From Candidatus Woesebacteria bacterium RIFCSPHIGHO2_02_FULL_42_20 (GTDB lineage Bacteria > Patescibacteriota > Microgenomatia > UBA8517): 47,694 nucleotides of DNA. The notes below the pieces were generated by a model. The model saw only the letters and a list, made by a program, of their open reading frames with translations. It made no database searches and was not told the DNA's origin. The stretch lies in assembly GCA_001792535.1 (NCBI GenBank), contig MGGS01000001.1:1-47694 (forward strand), read 5' to 3'. Below, piece after piece: positions 28,330-45,678 of this stretch (position 1 is the first letter of the stretch; every line of letters starts with the position of its first letter). A program made the position numbers and the translations under genes.

Positions 28330-29750
28330 TGAAATTAACCGATCTTCTTAAGGGTATAAAATGCGAGGTCTTTGGCGGAAAGGATATTAATATAAGTGCC
28401 GTTACGCCGGATTCCAGAAGGGTAAAAAAAAATAGTCTATTTGTCGCTGTTAAGGGCCTCAATGTTGATTCCCATGAATTTATAGATCAGGTTATTGAAA
28501 AAGGTGCGGCAGTTGTTGTCGGCGAGGTAAAGCCGGCTGCCGATTGGCTTGGCAAGATTACATATGTCAAAGTGGCTAACTCAAGAAAAGTACTTGGCTG
28601 CCTTGCAGCTAACTGGTTTGGTAATCCTTCGCGGAAGCTTGCTGTCATTGGGGTAACAGGCACAGACGGTAAGACTACTACCTGTAATTTTATTTATTCG
28701 ATTTTAAACTTTTCCGGTCACAAAACAGGGTTGGTGACGTCGATTAACGCGAAAATTGGAGACAAAAGCCTAGACACAGGTTTTCATGTCACAAATCCTG
28801 AGCAGTTGGAACTTCAAAAAATTTTAAAGCTGATGGTTGATGCAGGCTGCGAGTTTGCAGCTATTGAAGTTACCTCGCACGGACTTGACCAGGAAAGGGT
28901 TGCCGGAGTCGGGTTTAAAGCCGGGCTAATTACCAATGTTACCCACGAGCACTTGGATTACCACAAAACTTACGATAGCTATCTTTTAACTAAAGCGAAA
29001 TTAATGACGATAAGTGATTTTGTGGTTTTGAACAAGGACGACGGTTCATATAGAAAACTTAAAAGAATGGCTCCCGCAGACCATCTTACCTTTTCCATTC
29101 ATGACAACTTCTTGGATAAAAAGACGAATGAGCATTTGGCCCAACTGTTCCCCGGAAACTACAATGTCATGAATGCTTTGGGCGCGGCAGTATTGTGTCG
29201 AAAGTTTAGTATCTTGGACGAGAATATTAATTCAGGTTTACGGGCAATCAGAAAAATCCCAGGGAGATGCGAGAAAGTGGGTAACACGAGAGGTATAAAA
29301 CTTATAGTCGATTTTGCTCATACGCCGAATGGCTTAAAAAGCGTTTTGGCTGTGCTTAAGGCAAGCAGTCAAGGCAAACTTGTTTGTGTATTTGGTTGCG
29401 CTGGTGAAAGAGATCTTTTAAAAAGACCCTTAATGGGTGAGATATCCTCGAAGCTTGCAGATGTTACTGTATTAACTGCCGAGGACCCGAGATATGAGGA
29501 TGTTGACCGGATAATTGCCCAGATAAAAAAAGGGGTAAATGCCAAAAGTAAGGTTATCTGTATACCGGAACGAGGGGAAGCAGTTTGGTATGCTATAAAT
29601 AAAGTTGCCAAGTTAGGCGACACAGTTGTCATTTGCGGCAAAGGCCACGAAAAGTCGATGGCCTATAAGGGGATAGAATACCCTTGGAGTGACCGCAAAG
29701 CGGTCAAACTGGCCTTGGAGGGTAAAATATTTAAGGTAAATCATGGTTGA
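28329..29750 (+). CDS. murE: UDP-MurNAc-tripeptide synthetase MurE
   Basis: DSRRV, GVTGTDGKTTT, EVTSHGL.Q.R, EHLDYH, DFAHTP, FGCAGERD..KR..MG, AEDPR, GKGHE. Confidence 0.93.
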   Translation: MKLTDLLKGIKCEVFGGKDINISAVTPDSRRVKKNSLFVAVKGLNVDSHEFIDQVIEKGAAVVVGEVKPAADWLGKITYVKVANSRKVLGCLAANWFGNPSRKLAVIGVTGTDGKTTTCNFIYSILNFSGHKTGLVTSINAKIGDKSLDTGFHVTNPEQLELQKILKLMVDAGCEFAAIEVTSHGLDQERVAGVGFKAGLITNVTHEHLDYHKTYDSYLLTKAKLMTISDFVVLNKDDGSYRKLKRMAPADHLTFSIHDNFLDKKTNEHLAQLFPGNYNVMNALGAAVLCRKFSILDENINSGLRAIRKIPGRCEKVGNTRGIKLIVDFAHTPNGLKSVLAVLKASSQGKLVCVFGCAGERDLLKRPLMGEISSKLADVTVLTAEDPRYEDVDRIIAQIKKGVNAKSKVICIPERGEAVWYAINKVAKLGDTVVICGKGHEKSMAYKGIEYPWSDRKAVKLALEGKIFKVNHG

Positions 29751-30809
29751 CATGCAAACTGCATTTGAAAGCGCGCCGAAAGTTAGTGAAAGAAGTACTT
29801 TAAATAGTAGGTTGGATCGGGAGTTGTCAATACGCGGAATTGGTCCTGAAAGTGCGGAGAATAAAGGAAACGTGATGATTCCAGCAATACCGGATAAGCC
29901 TGCGGTTAAGCCTGGTAAACAAGCAGAGTTTATTGAGTCAACAAAAGACACTTTGACCCAATTAGGTATAAAACACGATGCAAAAGCGTCCGTTAAAAGA
30001 ACAGTATTATCTTTCAGGGAAAATGTTCCATCTGAAGTTAACCGACGTGGACAAGACCAAGAGCTGCTATTTTATGACTTTGGTGATCCGGAAGCCATGA
30101 GCGAACCGGCTAAAAATATAGGGGTTCCCTTGGTTGTTTTTAGCCACGGCGGCAAAATTCATCCCGAGGTAATTGCCTCGTCAGGCTATTTGACTATGCT
30201 CCAAAAACATAATCCGAATATGCTTTTGTGCGCAGTTGATCATAGAGGATCGCAGTCTCACGATGTAAAAGTTGACTACGGCTTAGACGACAGGGTTGCA
30301 GATATATAGTTGCAATGAGATATGCAATGGGTGCTTTAGTAGAGGAGTATGAAAAGCAAGGAATAAGATGGAATGGAAAATTAGTCTTGATTGGAGACAG
30401 TATGGGTGGCGAGGTTATGTCTGTAGTATCTGAAAAGCTTTTTCCGGATGGAGTTATCCTGACCGAACCAGCGGCATATTCTGTATATGCACATCATGTA
30501 AAGTTTGGGAAAAGACATAATGAAGAGCCGGTATTCGGAGGTGATGATGGCGTGATTCGGAGTCGTAAACCCGATGACTCTTTTGCTCTAGAGTCGATTG
30601 GAAAATATATGGGAAAAACCCCCAAAGGAAAAGTGCTTGTCGTTGAGTTTGCTAGCGATAGAATTGTTGGTAAAATACCACAAGACTATAAAGCAAGTGC
30701 AGAAGTAGTTGATTCTATTAGAACGAGTCACCTTTTAACTAAAGGAGAACATGGTGCTACTCCAGCAGAAGAGGTGGAAACAATCAAGAATTTTGTTAAG
30801 AGTTTGTAA
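29743..30809 (+). pseudogene. Alpha/beta hydrolase split by a frameshift at about 30301-30309
   Basis: The 5' ORF has FSHGG and VDHRGS; the 3' ORF has GDSMGG, D and H; removing one AT from GATATATAG joins the two frames. Confidence 0.7.
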
Positions 30810-30810
30810 G

Positions 30811-31602
30811 ATGAAATATTTTTATTCGCCAACAAAAGCAGACTATTCAAAATATTTGTTCCCATATCAAGTTTATTTAATTAAAGAGGAAGCTGATAGC
30901 GCTGAAGAGATTTATGCCAAAGGGTTTCTTCCGGTCAGAACGATTTACGATTTGTATTATTTAGCTAGAAGCACCAGAGTTGATTTGGGTAACTTTGAAT
31001 TGTCGAGCGAAAATAGAAGAATACTTCGTAAGGTAGAAAATTTTTATTTCGAAGTTAAAGATATAGATAAGTTTAAGTTGGACGAGAGTGCCCTTAAAAT
31101 AATAAGGCAGTTTGCAAAGTCCAAATTTGATAAGGCACTTTTGAAGGATTCATCCTTAAAAAAGATTTTTTCGGTACTTGGTAACTATAACAAAGTTGCC
31201 TGTTTTTCGGACAAAATAGGCTTGCAAGGCTTGGCTGTTCTTTGTGTAAACGGGAAAACAGTTCACTATGCTCATCCATTTTATGCCATTGATGAACGAT
31301 TTAAGGACCTGGGGTTGGGGATGATGACATCTGTTGTTGATTGGGCAAGCGCGTCTTCCAAGAAGTATGTATACCTGGGGACAGTTTATGGTAAAAGTTC
31401 ACTCTATAAAACTCAATTTAAAGGTTTTGAATTTTTCGACGGCGTTGGCTGGTCTATTGACATTGGAAAATTAAAAGAGATTATTAAACTTGAAGAAGGA
31501 AAGTTTTCAGGCCATCTTTTACAAAACAAGAGTCATATTAAAAAATACTATAATTTCCCGAGTCTGACTAGACTTGTCAAAAAACTCAAATATGAACTCT
31601 AA
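30811..31602 (+). CDS. ATE1/Bpt-like aminoacyl-tRNA-dependent transferase (GNAT-like fold)
   Basis: RV....F.LS...RRILRK, FY......LG, YVYLG......LYK..F...E.....W pattern shared with bacterial arginyl/leucyl-tRNA-protein transferases; start at ATG 30811. Confidence 0.65.
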   Translation: MKYFYSPTKADYSKYLFPYQVYLIKEEADSAEEIYAKGFLPVRTIYDLYYLARSTRVDLGNFELSSENRRILRKVENFYFEVKDIDKFKLDESALKIIRQFAKSKFDKALLKDSSLKKIFSVLGNYNKVACFSDKIGLQGLAVLCVNGKTVHYAHPFYAIDERFKDLGLGMMTSVVDWASASSKKYVYLGTVYGKSSLYKTQFKGFEFFDGVGWSIDIGKLKEIIKLEEGKFSGHLLQNKSHIKKYYNFPSLTRLVKKLKYEL

Positions 31603-32914
31603 GAAACCGTGGGTTCACTTCATTGCCATTTGCGGGACAGGGATGGGAGCAGTTGCAGTTGTTCTCAAAAGCAAAGGTTATAGAGTAACAGGCTCAGACA
31701 TAGATTTTTATCCACCCATCAGTGATTTGCTCAGAAAAACCGGTGTGAAAATTGAGACAGGTTTTGATGCAACAAGGATAAGCTCCCAGATAGACATGGT
31801 GGTTATCGGCGGAAGTGCTTTGATTGATGACCGAAACAACCCCGAATTTGTGCAAGCCAAAAAACTTAAACTTCCCATCAAAACCTATCCAGAGTTGATT
31901 GCAGAGTATGTAATTAGGCCGGAGTCAATAGTCGTAGCCGGAACGTACGGTAAAACAACCGTTTCGGCTATGATTGCTTGGGTGTTTAAAAATATGAAAG
32001 TTGACGCAAGTTATTTTGTCCCCGGGATTGCAGTTGACTTGCCAGAGCCGATTCATTTGGGTGAATCAAGTTTTTCTGTTGCCGAAGGAGATGAATATCC
32101 GGCGGCAGTTTTTTTTGATAACGAGTCAAAATTTATGTTTTATAAGCCTAAATTCGTGATTTTAACTTCTGTAGAGTGGGATCACTTTGACGTCTTCCCA
32201 AAAGAAAAAGATTATATCCAAAGATTTGTTAATCTTATGAAAATTGTTCCCAAAGACGGGTTGGTAGTCGCGCCAAGTTCGGGCAAAAACGTTGAGAAGG
32301 TACTAGGTTTTGCCGGCTGTAAAGTAGTTCGTTTCTCAAGTGACAATTTTAGTGAGCAACTCCAAGTAATTGGCAGACACAATAGGGCAAATGCCGCGGG
32401 AGTTTTTACTTTACTTTGTGAATTGGGTTTTCCCAGGGAAGACATAATCAAAGGTTTATCGAATTTTAGAGGTGTCAAAAGAAGATTGGAAGTAATTTAT
32501 AAAGACAAAAACCTTGTAGTAATAAATGACTTTGCCCAGCACCCATCCCGACTTAAGGCCTCAATTGACGCAGTAAGAGAAGAGTATAAGAAACGCCTGG
32601 TCGTGGTTTTGGACCCACACGCGTCGATATTTAAAGACCCGACTATTCTAAAAAAACTTAGTACTGTGTTTGACAAAGTGGACGCTTTATTCATACTAAG
32701 GCTGAAACTTTTAAAAGGTCGCCATAAAGTCACTGGTCCTTTGATAGTTAAAGCAAGCGGACTTTCGGATGTTAAGACTAAATACATTCCCCTTGATGAG
32801 GATTTAGTAAAGGAACTTCTTAACCAAGCCAAAAAAGGAAATTGCGTTATCATGTTTTGCTCAAGCGGGGGGATAGATTCGCTGATCCAAAAATTTGTGG
32901 CTAAATTAAAATGA
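31592..32914 (+). CDS. mpl: Mpl-like (MurC family) UDP-MurNAc ligase
   Basis: HFIAICGTGM, GSD..FYPPIS..L, AGTYGKTT, EGDEY..VFFD..SKF..Y, EWDHFD, GVKRR, DFAQHP; these look closer to Mpl than to MurC. Confidence 0.75.
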   Translation: MNSKKPWVHFIAICGTGMGAVAVVLKSKGYRVTGSDIDFYPPISDLLRKTGVKIETGFDATRISSQIDMVVIGGSALIDDRNNPEFVQAKKLKLPIKTYPELIAEYVIRPESIVVAGTYGKTTVSAMIAWVFKNMKVDASYFVPGIAVDLPEPIHLGESSFSVAEGDEYPAAVFFDNESKFMFYKPKFVILTSVEWDHFDVFPKEKDYIQRFVNLMKIVPKDGLVVAPSSGKNVEKVLGFAGCKVVRFSSDNFSEQLQVIGRHNRANAAGVFTLLCELGFPREDIIKGLSNFRGVKRRLEVIYKDKNLVVINDFAQHPSRLKASIDAVREEYKKRLVVVLDPHASIFKDPTILKKLSTVFDKVDALFILRLKLLKGRHKVTGPLIVKASGLSDVKTKYIPLDEDLVKELLNQAKKGNCVIMFCSSGGIDSLIQKFVAKLK

Positions 32915-33615
32915 AGCTGAAGAATTTCCCAAAAACTTATAAGCTCTTGCAGGAGTATTTACACCTTACTTTCGGCAACGCCGATATCGCTTGTCCATAT
33001 TGGATAAACAAGCTTAACCAACACATCCGCGGACCGTTTTCGGGCAAGGGAACACCAAAGCAGATAAAAAAATCGGCTTTAACTCGTGCTTTAAAGCGGA
33101 ATATAAATTTAGCCAAGCTTAGTAGAAGGCAAATACTTATTTTTTTGAGACAAAACAGAATCGGTGTTGACTGTTCGGGGTTTGTTTATAATTTGGCAAA
33201 TTACCTGGACAAAGAAAAAGGTGGAGAGGGCCTTGCCCGCAAACTATTTAACAAAAAAATTTTCCCCCGTTGGAACCCAGCTTGGCGTACAAGTGTGCAG
33301 ATACTCACAAGTAATGCCAAAACTAGAGAAATAAAATTGTCAGATATCCGAGTAGGCGACCTGATCAGATTAACAAGCGGAAGGCACGTTTTGTTTGTCA
33401 TAGACGTCACCGGGAAATATATTACCTACGCGCATTCATCGAAGTTTCTCACTAAAAAATCTGGGGTCCATTTGGGAAAAATAAAAGTAACTGACCGGTT
33501 AAAAGGTTTAGAAGACCAGCTCTGGCTTGAAAAGACTCCGAAAGGAGAAAGTTTTGGTAAAAAATATTTTGATCCCAGCCAGGGCGATTCTCTTCGAAGG
33601 TTTAATTGGTGGTAA
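32911..33615 (+). CDS. NlpC/P60-like (C40) cysteine peptidase, no signal peptide
   Basis: GVDCSGFV, GDLI, HV, AHSS catalytic pattern; very basic protein. Confidence 0.75.
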   Translation: MKLKNFPKTYKLLQEYLHLTFGNADIACPYWINKLNQHIRGPFSGKGTPKQIKKSALTRALKRNINLAKLSRRQILIFLRQNRIGVDCSGFVYNLANYLDKEKGGEGLARKLFNKKIFPRWNPAWRTSVQILTSNAKTREIKLSDIRVGDLIRLTSGRHVLFVIDVTGKYITYAHSSKFLTKKSGVHLGKIKVTDRLKGLEDQLWLEKTPKGESFGKKYFDPSQGDSLRRFNWW

Positions 33616-33786: not shown

Positions 33787-34632
33787 ATGGATTACGAAGA
33801 AGGCAACACACCTATCAGGCAAATCAATGGTGTGTATTACAAATTGGAAACGGCCAACCCCACCGGGTCGGTTAAAGACAGAGGCATTTCTTTTCAGGTT
33901 TGGAAAGCAATTGGTACCGGCTTTAGTAAGTTTTGCATCAGTTCGTCCGGGAACGCCGCGATATCAGCGGTAACGTATGTCGGCTTGGCAGGCGGAACCT
34001 TGGATGTTTTTGTGAGCCGAAAAATTAATAAAGGCAAGCTTAAAAAAATAATCGGCAAAGACGTAAAGGTTCATTTCAGCCAAAAAGCAGTTAGCGAATG
34101 TATGCAGTTTGCCCAAAAAACGAATGCATATAATCTTCGCGCCTCCCAGGATCCCAATGGCTGGGTAGGCTACATGTCTGTTGCTTACGAGCTTGATTTT
34201 AAACTTGGTAAGTTAGGTGCAGTTTTTATTCCCGTTTCCAGCGGTACACTGTTTTATGGCGTGGCGCGCGGTTTTGACAAAATTGGCTATTTACCTACGT
34301 TGCATGCCGTACAAACTCCATATTGCAACTTCATTGCGAGCAAATTTGATAAAGATTTTAAACCAAGCCAGAGTAGTCTTGCCGACGCGCTGGTTGCAAA
34401 AACAACACCTTTAAAATCCGGTGTAGTTTCTTTGATTAAAAAATCCAAAGGTTTTGGTTGGGTCGTGTCGGATAATGAAATAAAAAAAGCTTGGGTGGAG
34501 TTATACGGAAAGGGTTTGGATACGTCATACGAAGGCGCGGCTTGTCTGGCCGCATACCGAAAAGCGCTCGGCAAGAAATTTAAGGTAAAAGAACCAATTG
34601 TTTGCTTAATTACTGGAAGATATTACGGATAA
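33787..34632 (+). CDS. PLP-dependent fold-type II enzyme (threonine synthase/cysteine synthase-like)
   Basis: KLETANPTGSVKDRG (PLP Lys), SSSGNA, PVSSGTL, SLADAL, ITG; probable start at ATG 33787. Confidence 0.85.
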   Translation: MDYEEGNTPIRQINGVYYKLETANPTGSVKDRGISFQVWKAIGTGFSKFCISSSGNAAISAVTYVGLAGGTLDVFVSRKINKGKLKKIIGKDVKVHFSQKAVSECMQFAQKTNAYNLRASQDPNGWVGYMSVAYELDFKLGKLGAVFIPVSSGTLFYGVARGFDKIGYLPTLHAVQTPYCNFIASKFDKDFKPSQSSLADALVAKTTPLKSGVVSLIKKSKGFGWVVSDNEIKKAWVELYGKGLDTSYEGAACLAAYRKALGKKFKVKEPIVCLITGRYYG

Positions 34633-35496
34633 AACAAACCAGATTAAAATTGCAGCATTCATTGCAAAATAACCGGGTTGCTGCACTCCGCCGATTTTAA
34701 ATTCAATTTTTCTATCTGAAAGGTCTTTATCGGTTTTGAAAACAAAAGAAAAGACGGCAACGATTGGAGCCACAATCAAAAACCACCAAGGAATAATACC
34801 TTTGCTTAAGGCTATTAAAATGCAAATTATTCCCGCTACGAGCGAAAGCTTGGCAAGCAAAAGCGCGTTTTTTTTACCCAAAAGAATGCTCGTGTTTTTG
34901 AGCCTTGCTTTTTTGTCGGCAATAAAATCACGTAACTGGTTATATATTTGCCCGTAACTGGATATAAAAAAGGCTGCGGCGACCAAGTAACCTGCTGTGT
35001 CAAGACTGCTTGAGTAGGTGTAAAATGAGGTCAGAATCAGCATGCTTCCAAGCATCATGGCATGGCTAGCAATGTCTACAATAGGCCATTTTTTGAGTCT
35101 TACAAATTTACTTGAATAAAGGTAGGAAAGAAGTATATTGGCACTTCCTAGCCAAAAAACAGGTCCACCGATGTAATAGAAGGCAAAAAAGGCGACCAGG
35201 GCGACTGACATAGACAATAAATAGCCTGTTCGTTTGGTTAGTGCGCCGCTGGCTATGGGATTTTTGACCAGTTTGGCTGTTATGAACTTGTCGTCTTCGG
35301 CATCCTCGACATCGTTTAGCATGAATGCGAAGGCAACCGTCGCGATGTTACCGATTAAGACAGCATATAACCTGTAGTCAAAAACCGAAATGTCTGCCCT
35401 ATTAGAAAGTAATGGCCCCAGAAGTGTGAGCGGTAGAACAAAAAGTAGATATTCCTTCCAGCGAGTCAGAAGCAAAACACCCTTGACTGTATTCAT
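34606..35496 (-). CDS. UbiA-family prenyltransferase
   Basis: NDVEDAEDD...NPIASG, YS....LK, NQLRDFIAD motifs; many TM segments. Confidence 0.88.
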   Translation of the reverse strand: MNTVKGVLLLTRWKEYLLFVLPLTLLGPLLSNRADISVFDYRLYAVLIGNIATVAFAFMLNDVEDAEDDKFITAKLVKNPIASGALTKRTGYLLSMSVALVAFFAFYYIGGPVFWLGSANILLSYLYSSKFVRLKKWPIVDIASHAMMLGSMLILTSFYTYSSSLDTAGYLVAAAFFISSYGQIYNQLRDFIADKKARLKNTSILLGKKNALLLAKLSLVAGIICILIALSKGIIPWWFLIVAPIVAVFSFVFKTDKDLSDRKIEFKIGGVQQPGYFAMNAAILIWFVLSVISSSN

Positions 35497-35562
35497 GGAT
35501 TTATTATACCAATATTAATTTTACTATTGCTAAAGTTTGTCTAGTTTGTCTAATATTAAATA

Positions 35563-36216
35563 ATGGAAGCAGCCGAAAATATAACTGCCGGTCAGGTTGG
35601 CGTGCCGCCTGTTGGTCCGGATAGGGCCGCTAAACCAGCGGCTGACAAAAAGTCAACAATCTTAAACTGGCTGATTGTTTTTGTGACCGTTACACTTATC
35701 GTTGTTTTATTCACAATAGCCGTACTGGCCTTAAGAGCGCCGGAAACTGTCAGTGTTGATGAGGGTGACGCTTTTTCGACACCAGAATTAATTGAGGAAT
35801 TGGTTAAGAAGTTTGAGCAAACTGCTCCGAGTTCCCAGTATTCCTTGGGTGATCTTGGTGCCGAAGTTACGACCCTCATTTCTCAAAGTAAGACTAGCTA
35901 TATTTTCTCACCCAACGGAGAACAAGAAGTACGGACCGGTAATTTGGACGACGGCTTTGTTTCAAGTCTGCTTGCCGGTATAGAATATAAAGTGATAGGG
36001 GAAGTGGAGGAAGACGGTTTCGTTAAAGTGTCGGCAAGCGGGACAGCAAGCGACTTCGAAGGCTTTTATGTCTTTGAAGTAGACGACCTTACCGGACAGG
36101 TCTTGGCCGTTTCTTTGTCTGTCGTTTATACTGATGCAGTCGGGAGTCCGGTTTCCGGTACTTTTAACTTTACCTATGAACTGCCAGTCGATGGTGAAGT
36201 GCTTGGTGTAACTTAA
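35563..36216 (+). CDS. Hypothetical single-TM acidic surface protein
   Basis: Pro/Ala-rich N-terminus, one TM segment, D/E/S/T-rich ectodomain. Confidence 0.75.
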   Translation: MEAAENITAGQVGVPPVGPDRAAKPAADKKSTILNWLIVFVTVTLIVVLFTIAVLALRAPETVSVDEGDAFSTPELIEELVKKFEQTAPSSQYSLGDLGAEVTTLISQSKTSYIFSPNGEQEVRTGNLDDGFVSSLLAGIEYKVIGEVEEDGFVKVSASGTASDFEGFYVFEVDDLTGQVLAVSLSVVYTDAVGSPVSGTFNFTYELPVDGEVLGVT

Positions 36217-37242
36217 TTAAAATAAGCTTTCCTTAATTTGCGCCCGGATTTGGGAGAAGTTAGCGTTTCCAGCCTTTGGTACGAGAATGAATTGGCCGCC
36301 GGGTCCCTTCGAATTACTGAGCACGTTGTCGGTTGATAAATTGAGCGTATTGATAGAATATTGATCTGGGTCAAACTTTAAAGCGGTTAATTCAACGATC
36401 AATTGCTTGTCGATATCTGTCTTTACACTTTCGCTTAGTTTGTCGATGATATTGTTCGCATTAGTCAGTACGCCAAGACTAATTAGTTTGTTTTTTATCG
36501 CGGCTAAAACGTCAAATTGTCGAAGACTGCGCGCAAAATCTCCGCCGTATGAGTCCGAGTGGCGTGACCTGACGAATTTTAATGCAGTCAGGCCATCCAT
36601 AGTGTTTTTACCTTGGTCAAAGTGTAGATGTTCGTATCGGCATGTAAATTGTTTTTCGAGTTCAAAACCTGAAAATTCTTCGTGAAACTTGGCAATCTCC
36701 TCGCCCGAAAACCCGCAGGTATCGTTTTCAAGCCCTTTTACGGGATAAAAGTAATCGTCGAAGGTGACCGGGACGTTAACTTCGATTCCGCCCATAATAT
36801 CGATAATTTCGACAAACCCTCCAAAATCGACAGATGCAAAATAGTCTACGGGCATGTCAATCATAGTACTTACAACGGACTTAATTAAGGGGCCTCCACC
36901 GGTGGCATAGGCATTGTTTATTTTAAAGTCGTTTATCCAAAGGTCTCTTGGAATGGAAGTAATCAATACTTTTTTGGTTTCTTTATCGATACTTATAAGA
37001 ATTATCACATCACTTAAATTTCCTCCCGAATGACCTTCTCCGCCATAACCAAGAAGCAAAACATTCACAGGTCGCTTTTGTTTTTCAGTTTTTTCGAAGA
37101 TGTCGGAAGTTACGGGAATCAGTTCGGGTTTGGAGGGAACTAAACTATTTGAGATTTTGGCAAACAAGTAACTACCTGTGAGCAAAATTAAAAAGAGAGC
37201 TACTGTGGCACCGATTAAAATAATTTTTTTCTTCTTGGTCAT
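36217..37242 (-). CDS. LCP (LytR-CpsA-Psr) family wall-glycopolymer transferase
   Basis: N-terminal TM, NVLLLG, SDVI, SIPRDL, KINNAY, ALKFVRSRH, DFARSLRQ. Confidence 0.93.
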   Translation of the reverse strand: MTKKKKIILIGATVALFLILLTGSYLFAKISNSLVPSKPELIPVTSDIFEKTEKQKRPVNVLLLGYGGEGHSGGNLSDVIILISIDKETKKVLITSIPRDLWINDFKINNAYATGGGPLIKSVVSTMIDMPVDYFASVDFGGFVEIIDIMGGIEVNVPVTFDDYFYPVKGLENDTCGFSGEEIAKFHEEFSGFELEKQFTCRYEHLHFDQGKNTMDGLTALKFVRSRHSDSYGGDFARSLRQFDVLAAIKNKLISLGVLTNANNIIDKLSESVKTDIDKQLIVELTALKFDPDQYSINTLNLSTDNVLSNSKGPGGQFILVPKAGNANFSQIRAQIKESLF

Positions 37243-38404: not shown

Positions 38405-38471
38405 CGGGAAAATTGTGACTGGAAAAGACAAGTTGGATTAGCTAATATCAAAACTGGGAGGTGAGATTTTT

Positions 38472-38735
38472 ATGGGCGGTGTGCAAGTAAGAAAAAGAGA
38501 CGACGGGAGTATGCAGCCTTTTGATCGAAACAAAGTTTATAGCTCTTTGACTGCTGCAGGTGCCAACTCCAATGAGGCGGAATGCCTGACTGTATTGATG
38601 GAGCATTGGGTGACCAGAAATGTTCAAAATGAAGTAGTCAAGTCGTCCGATATACGGGGTGTTTTGATTGAGTTGCTCAAGATATTGAATCCTGGGGTCG
38701 CCATTGCTTTCGAGTCGTACAAAAAACCGGTTTAG
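38472..38735 (+). CDS. Stand-alone ATP-cone domain protein
   Basis: VRKRDDGSMQPFDRNKV...SSDI...L...L....A..F..Y; GGAGGTG ribosome-binding site. Confidence 0.85.
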   Translation: MGGVQVRKRDDGSMQPFDRNKVYSSLTAAGANSNEAECLTVLMEHWVTRNVQNEVVKSSDIRGVLIELLKILNPGVAIAFESYKKPV

Positions 38736-38745
38736 TCGGGTTTTT
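38721..38745. terminator. Weak, possibly bidirectional hairpin between convergent genes
   Basis: AAAAAA-CCGG-TTTAG-TCGG-GTTTTT; short stem. Confidence 0.3.
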
Positions 38746-39826
38746 AGATAATATTAACTTCTGGCTCGAGTTTAAGATCGTAGTTTGTATATATATCTTC
38801 TTGCATTTTTTGAGAAAATTCCAATATTTCTTGGCCCGTGGCATTCCCGTGATTAATAATAACTAAAGCATGTTTTTCGAAAGTTCCCACATTTCCTATT
38901 CGCTTACCTTTCCAACCAAGTTCGTCTAGCAGCCTGCCGGCTGGGATTTTGACGTAATTGGCCATCTTAAAAATCGGGTCATCGGGGTCGGGATAAAGCA
39001 TTTCGTTGACTGGATATGCCTGAAGATTAGGTACCACTTTGAGTAGTTGGCGATATTTATTTTTAGTGACTACCGGATTTTTAAAAAAACTTCCCGCGGT
39101 ACCGACTTTTGTCCAGTCAGGCATTTTAATCCTGCGTAGGTTGGTAACAGCTTGGGCGACGATTTTTGGAGTGAGATTGTTTAGGTCTGGAACAATTTTA
39201 ATAAGCTCTTGTTTAAGTGATTCGTATGGAGCGCTGCCAAAATAGTCTGTGCTAAAGTGAGGTGTTTTTGACAACTTGACTGAAACCGAAGTAATAAAGA
39301 ATTTATTTTTGAGTTCGTGCTTAAAAATGCTGTCTCTGTAATAAAATTTACATTCGTTTTTTGTAATGGTTTCTAATTTGTTTGTGTCCAAACTGATGCC
39401 TTCAACCTCTTTTGTCACCGCTCCAAAATTTTGGCCATAGGCGGCAAGGTTTTGAACGGGCGCGGCCCCTATTGTTCCGGGTATCAGGCTAAGGTCTTCA
39501 ATTCCCGATAATCTGTTATTTACAGACCACATTACAAACTTGTGCCAGTTTTCTCCTGCGTTTACTTTGACTAAGACCTCTTTTGTGTCATCGCTCAGTA
39601 TTTGTTTTTTTGGAATAGAGATCTTGATCACCAATCCGTCAAAATTTTGTGTGAAGAGGGTATTTGTCCCGTCGCCCAAAATATGGAACTTTTCTACTTT
39701 TAAAAGCGAACTTTTGCTAATTTCCCGCAAGTCTTCACGCTTTTTTATTTCTACAAAGTATTTCGTCTTGATATTAACTTTGAAGGAGTTAAGCCTTTTT
39801 AGGTTATAGTCGGTAATAATTTTCAT
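38744..39826 (-). CDS. murB: UDP-N-acetylenolpyruvoylglucosamine reductase
   Basis: LGDGTNTLF, AGENWH, IPGTIGAAPVQN..AYG, YRDSIFK, AGSFFKNP, HALVIIN, LEPEV. Confidence 0.96.
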   Translation of the reverse strand: MKIITDYNLKRLNSFKVNIKTKYFVEIKKREDLREISKSSLLKVEKFHILGDGTNTLFTQNFDGLVIKISIPKKQILSDDTKEVLVKVNAGENWHKFVMWSVNNRLSGIEDLSLIPGTIGAAPVQNLAAYGQNFGAVTKEVEGISLDTNKLETITKNECKFYYRDSIFKHELKNKFFITSVSVKLSKTPHFSTDYFGSAPYESLKQELIKIVPDLNNLTPKIVAQAVTNLRRIKMPDWTKVGTAGSFFKNPVVTKNKYRQLLKVVPNLQAYPVNEMLYPDPDDPIFKMANYVKIPAGRLLDELGWKGKRIGNVGTFEKHALVIINHGNATGQEILEFSQKMQEDIYTNYDLKLEPEVNII

Positions 39827-39879: not shown

Positions 39880-41169
39880 ATGTCCAAGCCATTTTTCTTT
39901 ATTTCCTCTGATCCTTTTAGGGCAGTTGGCTTGGCACTATTTACAAGCGATTTTGTCTTGATATGCGAAAAGCACTCTTACGTTGTTGACTGGCTAAGCC
40001 GTCGGGGAATAAAGGCTTTGGTTTTAAAATCTAACTACAACAACAGCGGCAAAATTCTTGCGGAAGCGAAAGTGGGCAAATTTATTTCAGATTACTCGGG
40101 CGGTATCACTCCCGAAATTTTGGTGTTTAAGCCATCTGCAAAAATTGACTTACTAGCCAGAAACAAAGGCTATAAGTTGCTTGCCAACAGTGCGGTACTA
40201 AATAAAAAGTTCGAGGACAAGACAAGTTTTTATAAACTTTGCCTTGACAATAATCTGGAAGTTCCAAAAGGGTTCGTAGCTAGGTTTGGGGAGGTCGATT
40301 TCGAAAGAGCTAAAAGTAAATTGGGTTTACCTCTTGTAATTCAATTCGGTAGGGGTTGGGCAGGCGGAACCACTTTTTTTATAGCCAACGCCAAAGATTA
40401 TTTGAGTCTTCAAAAGAAATTCCATAAGACCAAGGTAAAGTTTTCACAAAAGGTCGAAGGTATTACTGTCCTTAATAATGCGTGTATTACAAGTGATGAT
40501 CAAGTATTGGTTAGTCAGCCCGCCATTCAATTGTCAGGTGCGCTCTTTGGCCAGAGTGAAGCTGTGACTTTCGGTAGGCAATGGGGTGGGAACTTAATAC
40601 CCGACGAGCAAGAGGCTAGAATTGCCACAATCACCAAGAAGGTAGGACACATTATGGCGCAAAGCGGATATAAAGGCTGGTTTGGCTTGGATTTTATACT
40701 AAGCACTGACGGAGAAGTTGTACTCTCTGAAAACAATGCCCGGCTGACTGCTTCCTTTTCTTTTTATACGCAACTTGAGGTATTAAACGGATCTGATGTC
40801 ACTTTGTTGGCGAGTCACATAGCCGCTTTTGCCCAGAGAATAGCTGGTAGTTGGCATGTTCCTAAAGTGGTTGGCTCTCAAATTAGCTTGAGAACCGGCT
40901 CGCGAGGAGAAAAAGTTGTTAAAAAAAGTTTGCAAGCAGGTATTTATGGCCGTGATCTTAAATACAGGCGCGACGGGGTAGGTTTGGTGGATTTAACCGA
41001 TCAAAGCGAAGTTTTTATTAACTTTCCGGATTACGGCACTCTATTGCCGCAAAATAGTCAGCTGGTCACTATTGAAACTCGTAACCAAGTGCTTAAGAAT
41101 GAGCATAATGTTTACCCTTGGCTAGCTAAAGTAGCAAAGTATACGGAAAGTAATATACTTTATGAATAA
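39880..41169 (+). CDS. ATP-grasp fold ligase of unknown substrate
   Basis: FEDK..F..L...NLEVP, PLVIQ...GWAGG.T, Q.VEG, GWFGLDF, ENNAR (ExN). Confidence 0.8.
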   Translation: MSKPFFFISSDPFRAVGLALFTSDFVLICEKHSYVVDWLSRRGIKALVLKSNYNNSGKILAEAKVGKFISDYSGGITPEILVFKPSAKIDLLARNKGYKLLANSAVLNKKFEDKTSFYKLCLDNNLEVPKGFVARFGEVDFERAKSKLGLPLVIQFGRGWAGGTTFFIANAKDYLSLQKKFHKTKVKFSQKVEGITVLNNACITSDDQVLVSQPAIQLSGALFGQSEAVTFGRQWGGNLIPDEQEARIATITKKVGHIMAQSGYKGWFGLDFILSTDGEVVLSENNARLTASFSFYTQLEVLNGSDVTLLASHIAAFAQRIAGSWHVPKVVGSQISLRTGSRGEKVVKKSLQAGIYGRDLKYRRDGVGLVDLTDQSEVFINFPDYGTLLPQNSQLVTIETRNQVLKNEHNVYPWLAKVAKYTESNILYE

Positions 41170-41863
41170 GAATGTTGTTCTGATACATGGCTGGGGTTCT
41201 TCGACTTTGAAGTTGGATAAGCTGTCAATGGACTTGGAAGAGCTTGGTTGGCAAGTGTTGTTACTGCCACTTCCCGGCTTTGATTTACAGCCTCCAAGTA
41301 CAGTATGGGGAGTGAAAGAATACGCCGACTACATTTACAAAGAGTCGTCAAAATTTTTTAATGGGTCACACTTTGTTGTCTTTGGCCATTCATTTGGGGG
41401 TAGAGTGGCAATTAATATTGGCGCAAGAAGGTTACCTGCTACCGAGGGAATTGTTTTGTGCGCAACTTCGGGTGTTTCAAGAGGAAATAAAGCTAAAAGG
41501 TTTGTATTTAGCACACTTGCCAAATCTGGCAAAATTATTTTGGGTAAGAGGCCGAGAAAACTCTTTAAGAGCTTTCTTCATAAACTTTCCCGTGAGCATG
41601 ATTATGAAAAGTTGGAAGGGGTAATGAAAGAGATTTTTAAAAAAGTGGTAGCCTACGACTCACTACCAGAAGTCAAGAAGATTAAAGTGCCCGTTTTCAT
41701 TATTTGGGGGGATAGTGACCGTATGACACCTTTGGCTGACGCAAAGAAACTAAAATCTTTAATCGGCCGTTCTAAGCTGTACGTTTTTAAAAATTTGGGT
41801 CACACCTTGCCTTACGTACGGCCAAAACAAATTGCAAAATTAATTGACCAATGGAAAATATAG
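41162..41863 (+). CDS. Alpha/beta hydrolase
   Basis: IHGWG, LPGF, GHSFGG, IWGDSD..TP, GH. Confidence 0.92.
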   Translation: MNKNVVLIHGWGSSTLKLDKLSMDLEELGWQVLLLPLPGFDLQPPSTVWGVKEYADYIYKESSKFFNGSHFVVFGHSFGGRVAINIGARRLPATEGIVLCATSGVSRGNKAKRFVFSTLAKSGKIILGKRPRKLFKSFLHKLSREHDYEKLEGVMKEIFKKVVAYDSLPEVKKIKVPVFIIWGDSDRMTPLADAKKLKSLIGRSKLYVFKNLGHTLPYVRPKQIAKLIDQWKI

Positions 41864-43422
41864 TTGATTTGGTAATAAAACTAGTCCTTATTGCCCAGAT
41901 AGTTTACGAGTCTCTTGTCATTACCTATTGGGTGCAGCAAAAAGAATATCGTTGGGACAGATTTAGAAGTTTTGTTAAAAGCAGGGAGGGACTGTTTACC
42001 CTTAATGTTCACTTTATAGCCGCTAAAGTTGCTTCGTTGTTTTTTTTGCCGTTTTTAATTTCTCTGATTATTGTCGGCTTTATCCTATTAGTTTACTTAG
42101 ACAAGATTAGGACGAAGGGTCTTACAAGGCCAATTTTTACTTTAAGAGCAAGAGAGGTCTACTTGACCCTAGTTAGCCTTGCGTTTTTGGCGAGTGCCGT
42201 CGGCAGTATTATCTTTGCTCAGTTAAGCCTGCTCATTTCGCCCATCATTGGTGTTTATTGGTCGGGTCTCCTTGTCAGGCGAACACTCAGAAAGGAAGTT
42301 TTACAGGCAGAAGCTGTTTTTAGAAATGTCAAGCCAAAAGTTGTTGGAGTCACGGGCAGTTATGGCAAGACTACAACTAAGGAATTTATTGCTACCCTAC
42401 TTTCACGAAAGTATGTTGTTGCCAAAACAAGAGGTGGAGAAAATACTCTTTTTGCTATAGTTCGCACAATTATCCATAATTTGCCCGGCAGCACTCAAGT
42501 TTTTGTTGTTGAGATGGGCGCCTATAAGCGGGGGGAAATTAAACACATAACTGATATAGTTCGACCAACTATAGCAGTCGTGACCGGTATTGAACCTCAG
42601 CACTTGGATCTGTTTGGGTCAATTAAAAATATCCAACTGACCAAATACGAACTTATAGAAAGTTTGGGAAAAGGCGGCGTTGCCGTCCTGAATTATGGCA
42701 ATAGTTATTGCAGGCAAATAGGGCAGTGGGCAAAAGAAAGCGGCGTAAAAGTTTTAAGCTATTGCCTTGGCCCAAGACAGAGAAGTCTGGCTGTGGATTT
42801 GTCTGCCCGAGTTTTGGAAATGTCGGGCAAGGGTGTAAAGGTTGAATTTGATTATAAAAATAAAAAGAAAACACTTGAATTTAAATTTGCTGGAGCGCAT
42901 TTTGTCGAAAACGCAATGGCGGCAATATTAGTCGCTTTTGTGATGGGATTAGACTGGAAAGACGTGGGTAAAGTGAGCGATGAACTATCCACATATGAGA
43001 AAACTATGAAGGTATATAAAACAAAAAGCGGGGCGACTATAATTGATGATTCGCACAACAGTACTCCCAAGGCCTTTGAAGCGGCACTAGCGTATCTTGA
43101 CGAGTTTCAAGGAAGAAAAACTGTGTTCACGCCTGGAATTATTGAATTAGGATCTGTTTCAGACAAAGTTCATACTAGGTTGGGTAAGCTATTGGCTTCA
43201 AAGGTAGACGAAGTAGTTTTGACAAGAAAAGGATTCGAGTCGGCACTAAAAAAGGGCCTTGGAAGCTCCGTTAAAATACTTAAGATTTCTGATGGGAATC
43301 CTAATTATTTAAGCGAGTTGTTTAAAGAAAGTGCTACTCAAAAAGGTATTATTATTTTATTGGAGGGAAAAATGCCTAAGGCGATTTCATATCAATTGGA
43401 GAATCTTGAAACAGATGTTTGA
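41851..43422 (+). CDS. murF: MurF with N-terminal membrane domain
   Basis: About 4 N-terminal TM segments; GVTGSYGKTTTKE, VEMGAY..GEI, QHLDLFGS, IIDDSHNS.P, TPGIIELG. Confidence 0.88.
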   Translation: MENIVDLVIKLVLIAQIVYESLVITYWVQQKEYRWDRFRSFVKSREGLFTLNVHFIAAKVASLFFLPFLISLIIVGFILLVYLDKIRTKGLTRPIFTLRAREVYLTLVSLAFLASAVGSIIFAQLSLLISPIIGVYWSGLLVRRTLRKEVLQAEAVFRNVKPKVVGVTGSYGKTTTKEFIATLLSRKYVVAKTRGGENTLFAIVRTIIHNLPGSTQVFVVEMGAYKRGEIKHITDIVRPTIAVVTGIEPQHLDLFGSIKNIQLTKYELIESLGKGGVAVLNYGNSYCRQIGQWAKESGVKVLSYCLGPRQRSLAVDLSARVLEMSGKGVKVEFDYKNKKKTLEFKFAGAHFVENAMAAILVAFVMGLDWKDVGKVSDELSTYEKTMKVYKTKSGATIIDDSHNSTPKAFEAALAYLDEFQGRKTVFTPGIIELGSVSDKVHTRLGKLLASKVDEVVLTRKGFESALKKGLGSSVKILKISDGNPNYLSELFKESATQKGIIILLEGKMPKAISYQLENLETDV

Positions 43423-44671
43423 TAAACCTATTGCTATATCACTTTCACCAAACACCGAGCCCGACGACGTTCGTTTGGCCATAAAAGAATTACTAATCTT
43501 TAACGGTTGGTATGCATCTGCTAAAATTACTGCGCTTGAAAGTACACTAAACGATTACTTCGGTGACGGTTTTAAATCCCTCGCCGTCAACAGTGGCAGG
43601 AGTGCCCTGTACCTGATTTTGGAAACCTTGGGGATTGGCGGGGGGGACGAGGTTATAATCCAAGCATTCACTTGCGTCGCGGTTCCAAATTCTGTCCTTT
43701 GGTGCGGCGCAAAACCGGTATATACGGATGTCGACGATAATTATAACTTGGATGTAAATACTTTGGAAAAGAAAATAAACAAGAATACGAAGGCAATAGT
43801 TGTTCAGCATACATTTGGGCTTCCTGCAAGGATAGAGGAGATTAAAAAGATCGCGGTAAAACATAAACTTCATTTAATTGAAGATTGCGCTCATTGCTTG
43901 GGTGGAACTTATAAGGGGCGGAAACTTGGCACTTTTGGCGATATAGCGTTTTTAAGTTTTGGCCGCGACAAGGTGTTATCGGCTGTTTTTGGCGGCGCTG
44001 TAATAACGAGAAACGATAAAATATTTAATTTGATCACTGCAAAAATTGAAAGGCTGAAATTTCCAAGTAGGTTTTGGGTATTGCAGCAGCAACTACACCC
44101 CATACTTTTTAGTTTGCTTCTACCTGTTTATAACTTGGGTATTGGTAAGTTTACCCTTGGTAAGTTTTTGCTTTTTTTCTTTCAAAGAATTAAATTACTT
44201 TCCTTGCCTGTTTATGAAAAGGAGAAATCGGGAGGTAAAATTGATTTGTTTCCCAGAAAGATGCCTGGATCGCTGGCTTCATTGGCTAAGCACCAATTTA
44301 CAAAGCTAAATAGATATAATCGGCACAGAAGGGAAATAGCACGGCTTTACTTTGATGGCCTGAAGGGTACAAAAGTGATAACGCCCAATTATGATAAAAA
44401 TTCGGTTTGGCTTAGATACCCTGTAAGGCTAGATAAAGCCGGCGAGTTATTTGAATACGCAAAGGCAAGAGGTATGCTTCTTGGCAGGTGGTATAAGAGT
44501 GTAATTGAGCCCGCGAAGGACCTTTCGGTTGTTGGTTATGAACTGGGATCTTGTCCAAACGCGGAGAAGCTCGCCCGAACCGTCTTGAACCTGCCTACTT
44601 ACCCTGGTTTAAATGGTACCGATGTACAAAAAGTTATAGCTATGATAAAAAAATGGTCAATTACAAAGTAG
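43415..44671 (+). CDS. DegT/DnrJ/EryC1/StrS family PLP aminotransferase
   Basis: NSGRSAL, GDEVI.QAFTC, QHTFG, IEDCAH, SFGRDK, CPNAE, LNLPT; start at ATG 43415. Confidence 0.9.
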   Translation: MFDKPIAISLSPNTEPDDVRLAIKELLIFNGWYASAKITALESTLNDYFGDGFKSLAVNSGRSALYLILETLGIGGGDEVIIQAFTCVAVPNSVLWCGAKPVYTDVDDNYNLDVNTLEKKINKNTKAIVVQHTFGLPARIEEIKKIAVKHKLHLIEDCAHCLGGTYKGRKLGTFGDIAFLSFGRDKVLSAVFGGAVITRNDKIFNLITAKIERLKFPSRFWVLQQQLHPILFSLLLPVYNLGIGKFTLGKFLLFFFQRIKLLSLPVYEKEKSGGKIDLFPRKMPGSLASLAKHQFTKLNRYNRHRREIARLYFDGLKGTKVITPNYDKNSVWLRYPVRLDKAGELFEYAKARGMLLGRWYKSVIEPAKDLSVVGYELGSCPNAEKLARTVLNLPTYPGLNGTDVQKVIAMIKKWSITK

Positions 44672-45678
44672 TCGAGATTAACGATCAAAAAGTGTGGGAT
44701 GGTTTTGTAGTATCGACACAGCCACAGTCATTTTTACAATCCTGGAATTGGGGCGAAACCAATAGCAAGTTGGGTAAGCAAGTTTGGCGATTGGGCTATT
44801 ACGATAAAAAAACATTAGTTGGGGTATGTATGGCAATTATGGAAAGCGCAAAACGTGGCCCACACCTGCTAGTTCCTGGCGGCCCAGTAATAAACTGGAA
44901 AAATAAAAAGCTTGTAGATATATTTGTCGAGAGCGTTAATAATTTAGCCAGAAAAGAAAGGGTTTGGTTTGTGCGTTTCCGTCCAGAGCTACTTGACAAT
45001 TCTCGGCACCGTTCGCTTATGAAAAGCTTGGGATTTGTAGTCTCGCCGATGCATCTGCATGCCCAAAATACATGGGTATTGGATATCAGTCGAAGCGAAG
45101 ACGAAATTATGTCCGGCATGCGCAAAACTACCAGGTATTTAATCCGTCAGGCCATTGGACTAGACGATTTGAAGGTAACTTTTAGCAATTCCAATCAAAA
45201 TGTTAGCGTATTAGGTCAACTGCAAAAGGAAACTGCTTCGCGCCACCGGTTTGTTGGTTTTAGTCAAACACTGTTTAAAGCCCAGATGGACACTTTTGGT
45301 GGTGACGAACAGGCATTTCTGTTTGTCTGTTATCACAGAAGTATTCCTCTTAATGCGGCGATAATTATTTTTTATAATGATATAGCTTATTATCATCACA
45401 GCGCATCCACACTAAAGTTTCCAAAGACCCCTTCATCGTATTTGTTGCAATGGGAGATCATCAAAGAGGCTAAAAGAAGAGGCTGTAGAAAATATAACTT
45501 ATGGGGAATTGCACCAACCGACGATCCCAATCACAGGTTTTATGGCGTAACTGTTTTCAAAAAAGGTTTTGGTGGTCTAAGAGTTGATTGGTTGCCGGCC
45601 TTCGACATACCACTAAGTAGTTTTTATTGGCTGACACATTTTTTTGAGAAAATTAGAAAGAAAGTGCGCCGACTTTAG
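44653..45678 (+). CDS. FemAB/FemX family aminoacyl-tRNA:peptidoglycan transferase
   Basis: FLQSWNWG, GGP, MRKTTRY.IR, YLLQWE.I..AK..G...YNLWG, GV..FKKGFGG; start at ATG 44653. Confidence 0.9.
   Translation: MVNYKVVEINDQKVWDGFVVSTQPQSFLQSWNWGETNSKLGKQVWRLGYYDKKTLVGVCMAIMESAKRGPHLLVPGGPVINWKNKKLVDIFVESVNNLARKERVWFVRFRPELLDNSRHRSLMKSLGFVVSPMHLHAQNTWVLDISRSEDEIMSGMRKTTRYLIRQAIGLDDLKVTFSNSNQNVSVLGQLQKETASRHRFVGFSQTLFKAQMDTFGGDEQAFLFVCYHRSIPLNAAIIIFYNDIAYYHHSASTLKFPKTPSSYLLQWEIIKEAKRRGCRKYNLWGIAPTDDPNHRFYGVTVFKKGFGGLRVDWLPAFDIPLSSFYWLTHFFEKIRKKVRRL

Follow-up and report, generated by a model that had tools for sequence, protein, structure and literature searches.

How does a bacterium begin the stem peptide of its peptidoglycan when it has neither MurC nor MurD? 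In bacteria, both ligases and the D-glutamate (D-Glu) at position 2 of the peptide are regarded as nearly universal, and they serve as antibiotic targets. The question is raised by positions 1-47,694 of contig MGGS01000001.1 of Candidatus Woesebacteria bacterium RIFCSPHIGHO2_02_FULL_42_20 (here G000; a small bacterium from groundwater, with an assembly of 1.08 Mb in 18 contigs, 98.26% complete). We refer to this whole stretch of 47,694 nucleotides as the window. It contains a division and cell wall (dcw) cluster and is free of ddl, murC, murD and murG, as an earlier note on the sequence had stated. The cluster carries five core genes from uncharacterised families: an ATE/Bpt-like aminoacyl-tRNA transferase (the ATE-like protein), an Mpl-type UDP-N-acetylmuramic acid (UDP-MurNAc) ligase, an NlpC/P60-like cysteine hydrolase, a pyridoxal phosphate (PLP) enzyme of fold type II and an ATP-grasp ligase. 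The findings suggest an undescribed way of starting the peptide, in which different enzymes open the synthesis of peptidoglycan precursors, and on balance we believe that the cluster encodes such an alternative start in the form of two conserved modules.

The genome of G000 has only three genes with a Mur_ligase_M domain, all of them in the window: MurE, the Mpl-type ligase and a membrane-anchored MurF. A genome-wide search for ddl, murC, murD, alr and murI, all named in the earlier note, recovered one of them in weak form, a Ddl-like gene on contig 2, while murC, murD, alr and murI were not found anywhere in the genome. The top match to the MurD model (81 bits) is MurF, and there is no match to Ala_racemase_N (alanine racemase), Asp_Glu_race (glutamate racemase) or Aminotran_4 (D-amino-acid transaminase). 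The Ddl-like gene, the only one in G000, scores 99.7 bits (cut-off 243). It is located on the reverse strand of contig 2 (102362-104378; L004:495-2511) and shares an overlap with a gene of the PGA_cap/CapA family (213 bits), for which a second match, to the lasso-peptide C-terminal epimerase MslH (60 bits), was obtained. With alanine racemase absent from this genome, the two genes might provide an alternative route to a dipeptide with a D-residue. Contig 2 also carries two further FemAB genes.

The same absence is found well beyond this genome. Among 301 genomes of the class, MurD (counted at E<=1e-50) is present in 214 and the ATE-like gene in 33, the two lists, compared by hand, have no genome in common, and 54 genomes have neither gene (the MurD and MurI counts of this sample include one unpublished genome, G117). 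At the level of families, MurD is found in 0/18 genomes of f26 and 0/7 of f15, and the ATE-like gene in 18/18 and 7/7, respectively. A profile of the ATE-like family, used as query in a sample of the phylum, detected 14 more positive genomes in five families of other classes, and MurD over the cut-off is again absent (0/14). Altogether, MurD was found in 0/47 ATE-like-positive genomes (33 from the class, 14 from other classes); these genomes are interrelated, so that the counts are not independent and overstate the independence of the pattern, which weakens our case, and the pattern covers 13 families. Canonical MurC over the cut-off was found in none of the 20 ATE-like-positive genomes tested (0/21 with G000), each of which has at most one MurC/Mpl-type gene (129-293 bits). 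A canonical murC or murD elsewhere, which the earlier note had named as evidence against its idea, is therefore seen neither in G000 nor in any ATE-like-positive genome tested. Some relatives in the first sample have no Mur ligase whatsoever.

It could be argued that there is no special pathway at all, i.e. that MurC and MurD were missed because of incomplete assemblies or sequence divergence, or that the accessory genes serve another polymer and are in the dcw cluster by location only. Most of the sampled genomes are indeed draft metagenome assemblies, compact genomes put unrelated genes in operons, and the LCP, UbiA and DegT genes of the window point to other wall polymers. We nevertheless consider this very improbable: the pattern recurs in 47 genomes, which include single-contig genomes (G332, G528) and genomes rated 100% complete; the MurD model finds its targets in 205/301 class genomes and the MurC model in 9/9 genomes of family f38; and synteny is kept across classes. 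The other end of the peptide is a different matter. Five ATE-like-positive genomes from five families have 3-4 Mur ligases each, with a strong Ddl in 4/5 and alanine racemase in 2/5, so the D-alanyl-D-alanine (D-Ala-D-Ala) end often seems to be ordinary and it is the start of the pathway that differs.

The accessory genes also stay together in relatives. Thirty loci from other genomes were fetched around the ATE-like gene, 20 from the class and 10 from other classes, and the ATE-like gene adjoins the Mpl-type ligase in 27 of them (17/20 and 10/10, respectively), an arrangement far beyond chance and the opposite of the scatter in relatives that the earlier note had named as refuting its idea. 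The two genes are neighbours in G001 and G054 as well; the exceptions in the class are two loci of family f40 and one contig of 1.8 kb. Class loci are usually arranged as RsmH - PBP (penicillin-binding protein) - MurE - ATE-like - Mpl-type ligase - (MurB) - MurA - (MurF) - MraY - NlpC/P60 - PLP enzyme - ATP-grasp - FtsW, and in G001, which belongs to the same genus as G000, the order is MurE - ATE-like - ligase - NlpC/P60 ... PLP enzyme. The other three core genes (NlpC/P60-like, PLP fold-II and ATP-grasp, hereafter the trio) are complete in 11/20 class loci, with one or two genes in 5 more, several of these loci being cut by the fetched range; in the loci from other classes the NlpC gene is found in 9/10, the PLP enzyme in 9/10 and the ATP-grasp gene in 8/10. 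In most class loci the trio is found in the interval from MraY to FtsW, which is the canonical murD slot: MurD-positive genomes have murD there, often together with murI.

A comparison with family f38 is informative. Here all three trio genes share a single operon with a divergent MurD (153 bits, cut-off 212); canonical MurC is present in 9/9 genomes, and there is neither an ATE-like gene nor a MurI over the cut-off. The PLP enzyme itself occurs in 33/33 ATE-like-positive genomes of the class and in 16 f38 genomes. Judged from f38, the trio appears to be an independent unit that belongs to the second residue, and the same contrast connects the absence of MurC and MurD with the ATE-like protein and the Mpl-type ligase. 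MurI over the cut-off was found in 81/301 class genomes, in 0/49 of the 33 ATE-like-positive and 16 f38 genomes combined, and in 0/14 ATE-like-positive genomes of other classes. The earlier note had treated all nine genes as a single unit; the evidence separates three, i.e. the ATE-like gene with the ligase, the trio, and a hydrolase-MurF-DegT-FemAB block that also occurs without the first two. The f38 operon (L066-L070, e.g. L066:8291-12570) is not part of the dcw cluster and has prfB and ftsEX as neighbours.

The three overlapping genes that the earlier note described as ATE1/Bpt-like, Mpl-like and NlpC/P60 are indeed there, at 30811-31602, 31574-32914 and 32911-33615 (all genes of the window are on the forward strand unless stated otherwise), and the overlaps are 29 nt and 4 nt, respectively. 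The first of them (263 amino acids; its open reading frame (ORF) opens at 30751) gives weak family matches, and many of its homologues carry PF04377 and PF13480. Its AlphaFold2 (AF2) model has a predicted local distance difference test (pLDDT) score of 91.7, and the best Foldseek match is ATE1 (E 1e-9, probability 1.00, TM 0.62), followed by MprF, FemX and Sbb17, which all depend on aminoacyl-tRNA for the transfer. The protein is thus predicted to have an aminoacyl-tRNA transferase fold, and its use of donor and acceptor is a prediction that goes one step further. Longer fused forms of the protein were not found, which is weak evidence. Outside Patescibacteria, a 36%-identical relative is encoded in Paraburkholderia solisilvae (L031, 8508-10798), downstream of a Peptidase_M15 gene and a methyltransferase gene; Peptidase_M15 is the D-Ala-D-Ala dipeptidase family, so that here too an ATE-like gene is linked to D-amino-acid peptides. 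In four loci of the exceptional family f40 (L029, L030, L038, L040), a pyruvate:ferredoxin oxidoreductase gene and unnamed ORFs separate MurE from the ATE-like gene, which comes about 4 kb later and has no Mpl-type ligase beside it; these genomes are labelled Gammaproteobacteria in public records, and their gene order and 40% G+C resemble Patescibacteria loci. No tRNA gene lies within the window, and among the 41 tRNAs parsed from a genome-wide ARAGORN scan the sole duplicates are Met-CAT and Val-TAC (two each), so a tRNA dedicated to the ATE-like protein was not found; tRNA-Ser is absent from the parsed list, which may therefore be incomplete.

The ligase of the window (446 amino acids) scores 214 bits against Escherichia coli Mpl and 116 bits against E. 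coli MurC. The same preference, about twofold, is shown by 20/20 ligases linked to an ATE-like gene (140-214 bits against Mpl, 75-116 bits against MurC), and 9/12 MurC proteins of MurD-positive relatives score the opposite way. In a tree, the 20 ligases form one clade (SH-aLRT 99), which is sister to E. coli Mpl (94) and apart from both class MurC and E. coli MurC. The best match among solved structures is 3hn7 (171 bits, compared to 145 bits for MurC 1gqq); we take 3hn7 to be the Mpl of Psychrobacter arcticus, while its structure file labels it as a MurC-type ligase. By similarity and by the tree, the ligase seems to be closer to Mpl than to MurC, and ligation of a peptide is its predicted reaction. 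Furthermore, the ligase and the NlpC/P60 domain are joined in one ORF in two genomes of the samples, G429 (699 amino acids; L080:7389-9485) and G490 (697 amino acids; L100:3880-5973), a fusion which argues for a hydrolase that works on the peptide substrate of the ligase or immediately ahead of it.

These data bear on a reading in which the canonical steps are replaced one for one: the ligase would be a divergent MurC, the ATP-grasp protein would take the place of MurD, the PLP enzyme that of glutamate racemase, and the ATE-like protein would be a FemX-like adder of side chains. Like Mur ligases, ATP-grasp enzymes work through an acyl phosphate; racemases of fold type II are known; most class loci have the ATP-grasp gene at the place of murD, between MraY and FtsW; the transferase model matches FemX, among others, in its fold; and the NCBIfam MurC model scores the ligase as high as the Mpl model does. 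Even so, we think that this reading is quite improbable, since the ATP-grasp protein of f38 shares its operon with a MurD-like ligase and is thus not simply an analogue of MurD, the ligase falls in a clade with E. coli Mpl and away from class MurC, and neither the fusion to NlpC/P60 nor the strict link of the ATE-like gene to the loss of MurC and MurD is explained.

The NlpC/P60-like protein has no Pfam or NCBIfam match at E<=0.01. Its assignment comes from a conserved triad (C88 and H159 in 30/30 homologues, H175 in 90%) and from Atlas structure neighbours that carry PF00877 (TM 0.46-0.69), which we take as leads only. It has no hydrophobic segment and is therefore probably cytoplasmic. A cytoplasmic hydrolase next to an Mpl-type ligase would also suit a cell that salvages its stem peptides. 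Stem peptides or D-Glu would then be imported from the wall of a host without de novo synthesis of D-Glu; the NlpC/P60 enzyme would cut them (e.g. at the bond between gamma-D-Glu and the diamino acid), the Mpl-type ligase would re-attach L-Ala-D-Glu or a tripeptide, MurE would install the cell's own third residue, and the ATE-like enzyme would restore a lost N-terminal L-Ala. Patescibacteria are generally thought to be host-dependent. The ligase-NlpC/P60 fusion fits a cut-then-ligate order, MurI, Alr and Aminotran_4 are missing from G000, and known Mpl is a recycling ligase (PMC3060825). We still find salvage unlikely. ATP-grasp, PLP and aminoacyl-tRNA transferase are biosynthetic families and are conserved together with the ligase in 13 families; family scans of the window found no transporter in the cluster; MurE is retained wherever the fetched locus covers the region; a de novo supply of D-Ala survives in part of the ATE-like-positive genomes, as Ddl in 4/5 and Alr in 2/5 indicate; and the trio around a divergent MurD in f38 would be left unexplained.

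The remaining members of the trio have better defined families and less defined reactions. The PLP enzyme (33787..34632; its ORF opens at 33646) is remotely threonine-synthase-like and matches PF00291 with 147.4 bits (cut-off 35), which bears out the fold type II enzyme of the earlier note, and it scores 129.9 bits against the threonine synthase model NF005035, under the cut-off of 301; it follows that it is a fold-II enzyme whose reaction is not specified by its family. K77 and an SSGNAA motif are conserved. Relatives of 620 amino acids in f38 and f9, which carry PALP and LeuA_dimer domains, were considered and found to be unrelated to the system. The ATP-grasp ligase (39880..41169, 429 amino acids) scores 82.8 bits against NF005096 (cut-off 684), and no specific family reaches its cut-off. 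Its AF2 model (pLDDT 95) matches biotin carboxylase, PurK and PurT in Foldseek (E 1e-18, TM 0.59-0.68), which are generic matches that support a predicted membership in the ATP-grasp superfamily, and E284, N286 and R288 are invariant. This is a small family (78 homologues, all listed as hypothetical). The impression that it is a sporadic gene, which came from matches in 10/61 close relatives, was corrected by the wider samples.

While the gene content, synteny, complementary distribution, folds and fusion described above are observed, all substrates and reactions of the following scheme are inferred. Module A, the ATE/Bpt-like transferase and the Mpl-type ligase, would replace MurC and MurD. 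The transferase would move L-Ala from Ala-tRNA to the alpha-amino group of (D-)Glu, the ligase would couple the finished L-Ala-Glu to UDP-MurNAc in a single step that uses ATP, MurE would add the third residue, and MurF, MraY and MurG would work as usual. An N-terminal Asp or Glu is what known ATE/Bpt enzymes accept. Such a replacement is chemically sensible because an aminoacyl-tRNA transferase can extend nothing but a free amine and a Mur ligase extends a free carboxylate. We consider it fairly probable that module A first makes a peptide and then ligates it as a whole, whereas Ala-tRNA as donor and Glu as acceptor are tentative assignments that may well turn out to be wrong. Module T, the trio, would supply the second residue, D-Glu or a variant of it, in genomes that have no glutamate racemase and mostly no D-amino-acid transaminase. 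We speculate that the ATP-grasp enzyme makes a gamma-glutamyl dipeptide, that the PLP enzyme then inverts the Glu, which has a free amine, and that the NlpC/P60 enzyme finally cleaves the gamma-D-glutamyl bond, a typical NlpC/P60 cleavage site. The conserved catalytic residues in all three proteins speak for the two-module scheme in general; a ligate-epimerise-hydrolyse route of exactly this kind is doubtful. The complete picture would be a stem start that is built backwards and off the nucleotide, where Ala-tRNA acylates D-Glu, the Mpl-type ligase attaches the dipeptide, and the trio replaces glutamate racemase by an ATP-driven, one-way inversion; we offer it as a speculation that is rather unlikely to be right in all its parts.

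A number of points weigh against the alternative start proposed here. The ATE-like protein stays under the family cut-offs (PF04377 17.6 bits, cut-off 25; NF002342 28.8 bits, cut-off 205). A Cys-rich N-terminal ATE_N domain is typical of the ATE/Bpt family, and the protein has no ATE_N match, nor is there a Cys in the invariant or >=90%-conserved columns of a 64-sequence alignment. Known ATE/Bpt enzymes act on protein N-termini. In family f40, two loci (L038, L040) have an ATE-like gene without an Mpl-type ligase beside it. The ligase is about equally close to the Mpl model TIGR01081 (242.2 bits, cut-off 388.7) and to the MurC model TIGR01082 (241.5 bits, cut-off 335.1) and is under both cut-offs, 3/12 canonical MurC proteins likewise score slightly higher against E. 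coli Mpl, and the tree holds one Mpl and one MurC reference. The Mpl loop (S/T)AFFDKRSK (PMC3060825) has a good match only in G000 (AVFFDNESK) and G001 (AVLYFDEKSK); the other 18 ligases carry an insert of different sequence, and 7/12 canonical MurC proteins also have an insert at this place. According to the same source, P. arcticus Mpl accepts L-Ala-D-Glu at 1.4/min and the tripeptide at 260/min, i.e. the dipeptide is used about 190 times more slowly (PMC3060825). The role of the trio is derived from family chemistry, and its only sequence link to a gamma-glutamyl ligase is that of the ATP-grasp protein to BesA (17-20 bits), which at 17 bits is its sole sequence match among solved structures. 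Aminotran_4, a possible supplier of D-Glu, is present in 3/3 f38 genomes and in 1/18 ATE-like-positive genomes. Finally, 133/214 MurD-positive genomes are likewise without MurI over the cut-off, and the absence of MurI is for this reason not specific to the system.

It is useful to compare the proposed modules with known systems. The likeness to the Mpl of E. coli and P. arcticus consists of the three Mur-ligase domains, the grouping in the tree and the higher score, and known Mpl likewise ligates a ready-made peptide to UDP-MurNAc and takes L-Ala-D-Glu as a poor substrate (PMC3060825). That enzyme, however, is a recycling side route beside MurC, MurD and MurE, whereas the ligase described here is the sole one of MurC/Mpl type in a genome from which MurD is missing, scores under the cut-off, is paired with a tRNA-transferase-like gene and is fused to NlpC/P60 in two genomes. 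A second comparison is with MurD2/MurL of Xanthomonas, where an alternative early step (PMC8788868) is likewise tied to the absence of a D-Glu-forming gene, a divergent MurD lies beside an accessory gene as in f38, and the L-to-D conversion is ATP-driven and one-way, as the proposed inversion by the trio would be. The differences are that G000 has no MurD-like gene of any kind, that the accessory genes are NlpC/P60-like, PLP fold-II and ATP-grasp genes in place of MurL, and that MurC is replaced as well. MurD2/MurL is the only alternative early route that we found in print, within the parts of the publications covered, and it differs in every component.

The likeness to ATE1/Bpt, FemX/FemAB, MprF and Sbb17 consists of the predicted fold of the window protein, its weak ATE_C/arginyltransferase matches and the PF04377 and PF13480 domains of many homologues; the protein has 263 amino acids, no ATE_N domain and scores below the family cut-offs, and its proposed acceptor would be a free amino acid or a short peptide that starts the stem, as opposed to the protein N-terminus or Lys side chain of the known enzymes. 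In the catabolism of murein peptides, YkfC is an NlpC/P60 gamma-D-Glu-diamino-acid peptidase, YkfB/YcjG is an L-Ala-D/L-Glu epimerase, and MpaA also takes part. Here, too, a cytoplasmic enzyme of NlpC/P60 type is tied to L-Ala-D-Glu peptides, but in our case the partners are an ATP-grasp and a PLP enzyme and not an enolase-type epimerase, and the context (dcw cluster, ligase fusion) is biosynthetic. The protect-modify-release systems of LysW/LysX and BesA similarly combine an ATP-grasp ligase, a PLP enzyme and a hydrolase. The shared logic is our inference: no carrier protein was found here, and the similarity to BesA is marginal. The earlier note had also paired a LysW-like protein with the PLP enzyme and suggested a carrier protein. 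This element found no support; there is no small Zn-ribbon protein by the ATP-grasp gene, and the sole small ORF (38472-38735; 87 amino acids) encodes a stand-alone ATP-cone protein (30.8 bits) with one Cys, which adjoins MurB and not the PLP enzyme.

Neither the gene set nor Patescibacteria without MurC and MurD were found described in the accessible main texts of the literature (including PMC2922099, PMC11974145 and bioRxiv 10.1101/2025.01.14.632903; supplements aside), so the statement of the earlier note that the combination is undescribed stands within these bounds. If true, the exchange of both ligases throughout a lineage would give peptidoglycan synthesis a second alternative early route, and would be the first case in which an aminoacyl-tRNA feeds the main stem peptide and not a side chain. 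It would give testable functions to five uncharacterised families, provide a candidate for a new source of D-Glu, and bear on how far reduced cells rely on their hosts for wall precursors. Patescibacteria account for much of bacterial diversity, and such organisms would be misjudged by genome-based metabolic reconstructions that take murC and murD as their markers of peptidoglycan synthesis.

As regards the rest of the window, neighbouring genes overlap or are 1-5 nt apart from MurE through NlpC/P60 and again from ATP-grasp through FemAB. All five core genes are in the window, but the set is split by an inserted block at 34606-39826, six genes that the earlier note had left out; mraY does not follow directly, as that note had it, but lies 12 kb past the NlpC/P60 gene. 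The block consists of UbiA (starts 34606, reverse strand), a membrane protein (starts 35563; ORF listing and family scans), LCP (36217-37242, reverse strand), DUF2130 (37178-38404), the ATP-cone protein and MurB (38744..39826, reverse strand; PF02873 86.6 bits and PF01565 54 bits); UbiA, LCP and DUF2130 were assigned by family scans. The 5' ends of the LCP and DUF2130 ORFs overlap by 65 nt on opposite strands, and the GTG start of DUF2130 may lie further downstream. Composition analysis found no compositional island in the window. Upstream of the core genes there are RsmH (starts 24109) and a PBP (starts 25295), both identified by family scans, a 96-amino-acid ORF at the FtsL position (starts 25004), which has a 58% identical counterpart in G001, and MurA (27043..28329; PF00275 180.8 bits).

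MurE (28329..29750, 473 amino acids) is full length in the window (NF001126 446.8 bits, cut-off 373; residues 1-464 on model positions 1-483). In all 19 class loci that hold a MurE next to the ATE-like gene, its first 85-97 residues are missing, and the long form was found only in f1, the family of the window, G001 having one long and one short copy. The short MurE was considered as a sign of a nucleotide-free substrate and dismissed, because 8/8 MurD-positive genomes from other families, and f38 too, have the same form. With or without MurD, most families of the class show it (L089 and L090-L097 besides the ATE-like loci), so that it characterises the class and not the system.

The overlapping run of ATP-grasp, hydrolase, membrane MurF, DegT and FemAB genes reported in the earlier note was recovered at 39880-45678. 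After the ATP-grasp gene it comprises an alpha/beta hydrolase (here abh2; 41162..41863; PF00561 57.7 and PF12146 52.8 bits), the MurF-type ligase (41851..43422), a DegT-family PLP aminotransferase (43415..44671; start codon chosen, the ORF opens at 43331; PF01041 230.1 bits) and a FemAB-family transferase (44653..45678; start codon chosen, the ORF opens at 44551; PF02388 138.3 bits, FemX NF047883 32.2 bits, sub-cut-off). MurF is not full-length (TIGR01143 224 bits, cut-off 288.6; residues 150-504 on model positions 62-403), and by hydropathy its N-terminal domain, i.e. model positions 1-61, is replaced by about 140 residues with three hydrophobic segments. The run is followed by MraY (45697..46758; PF00953 92.3 and TIGR00445 172.7 bits) and FtsW (46762..47694; TIGR02614 262.6 bits), which is cut at the window end, and murG lies directly beyond the window, after FtsW, at contig position 47854-48852.

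The hydrolase-MurF-DegT-FemAB genes are a separate, recurrent add-on. The block precedes MraY in G000 and G010; in G429, of another class, it stands before MurE in a dcw cluster that holds all five core genes; and the hydrolase abh2 adjoins MurF in G010, G027, G054, G070 and G429. It probably acts on late precursor steps and on the addition of side chains, and the position of FemAB between MurF and MraY gives a weak hint of a FemX-like side-chain step. In G010, a genome of the same family (L025, 5900-20000), the PBP and the order hydrolase - membrane MurF - DegT - FemAB - MraY - FtsW are kept, MurE is in pieces with an internal stop, MurA is only a 40-amino-acid fragment, and there is no MurD and no MurI; judged from these gene remains, its wall pathway looks like one reduced to the late steps.

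The start of the system at 29743, as given in the earlier note, is in fact the first half of a split alpha/beta hydrolase. The N-terminal half (29743..30309) was read from the sequence, is without a family match and has an HGG motif; the C-terminal half (30315..30809), likewise read from the sequence, is in another frame and has a GDSMGG nucleophile motif. A stop and a frame change lie between them, at 30307-30315. G001 has nothing corresponding to this hydrolase at that position, and the protein does not resemble the second hydrolase at 41162. Contigs of three other sequencing runs (X10, X11 and X14) bridge the break with 0 differences, which means that the split is not an assembly error of G000.

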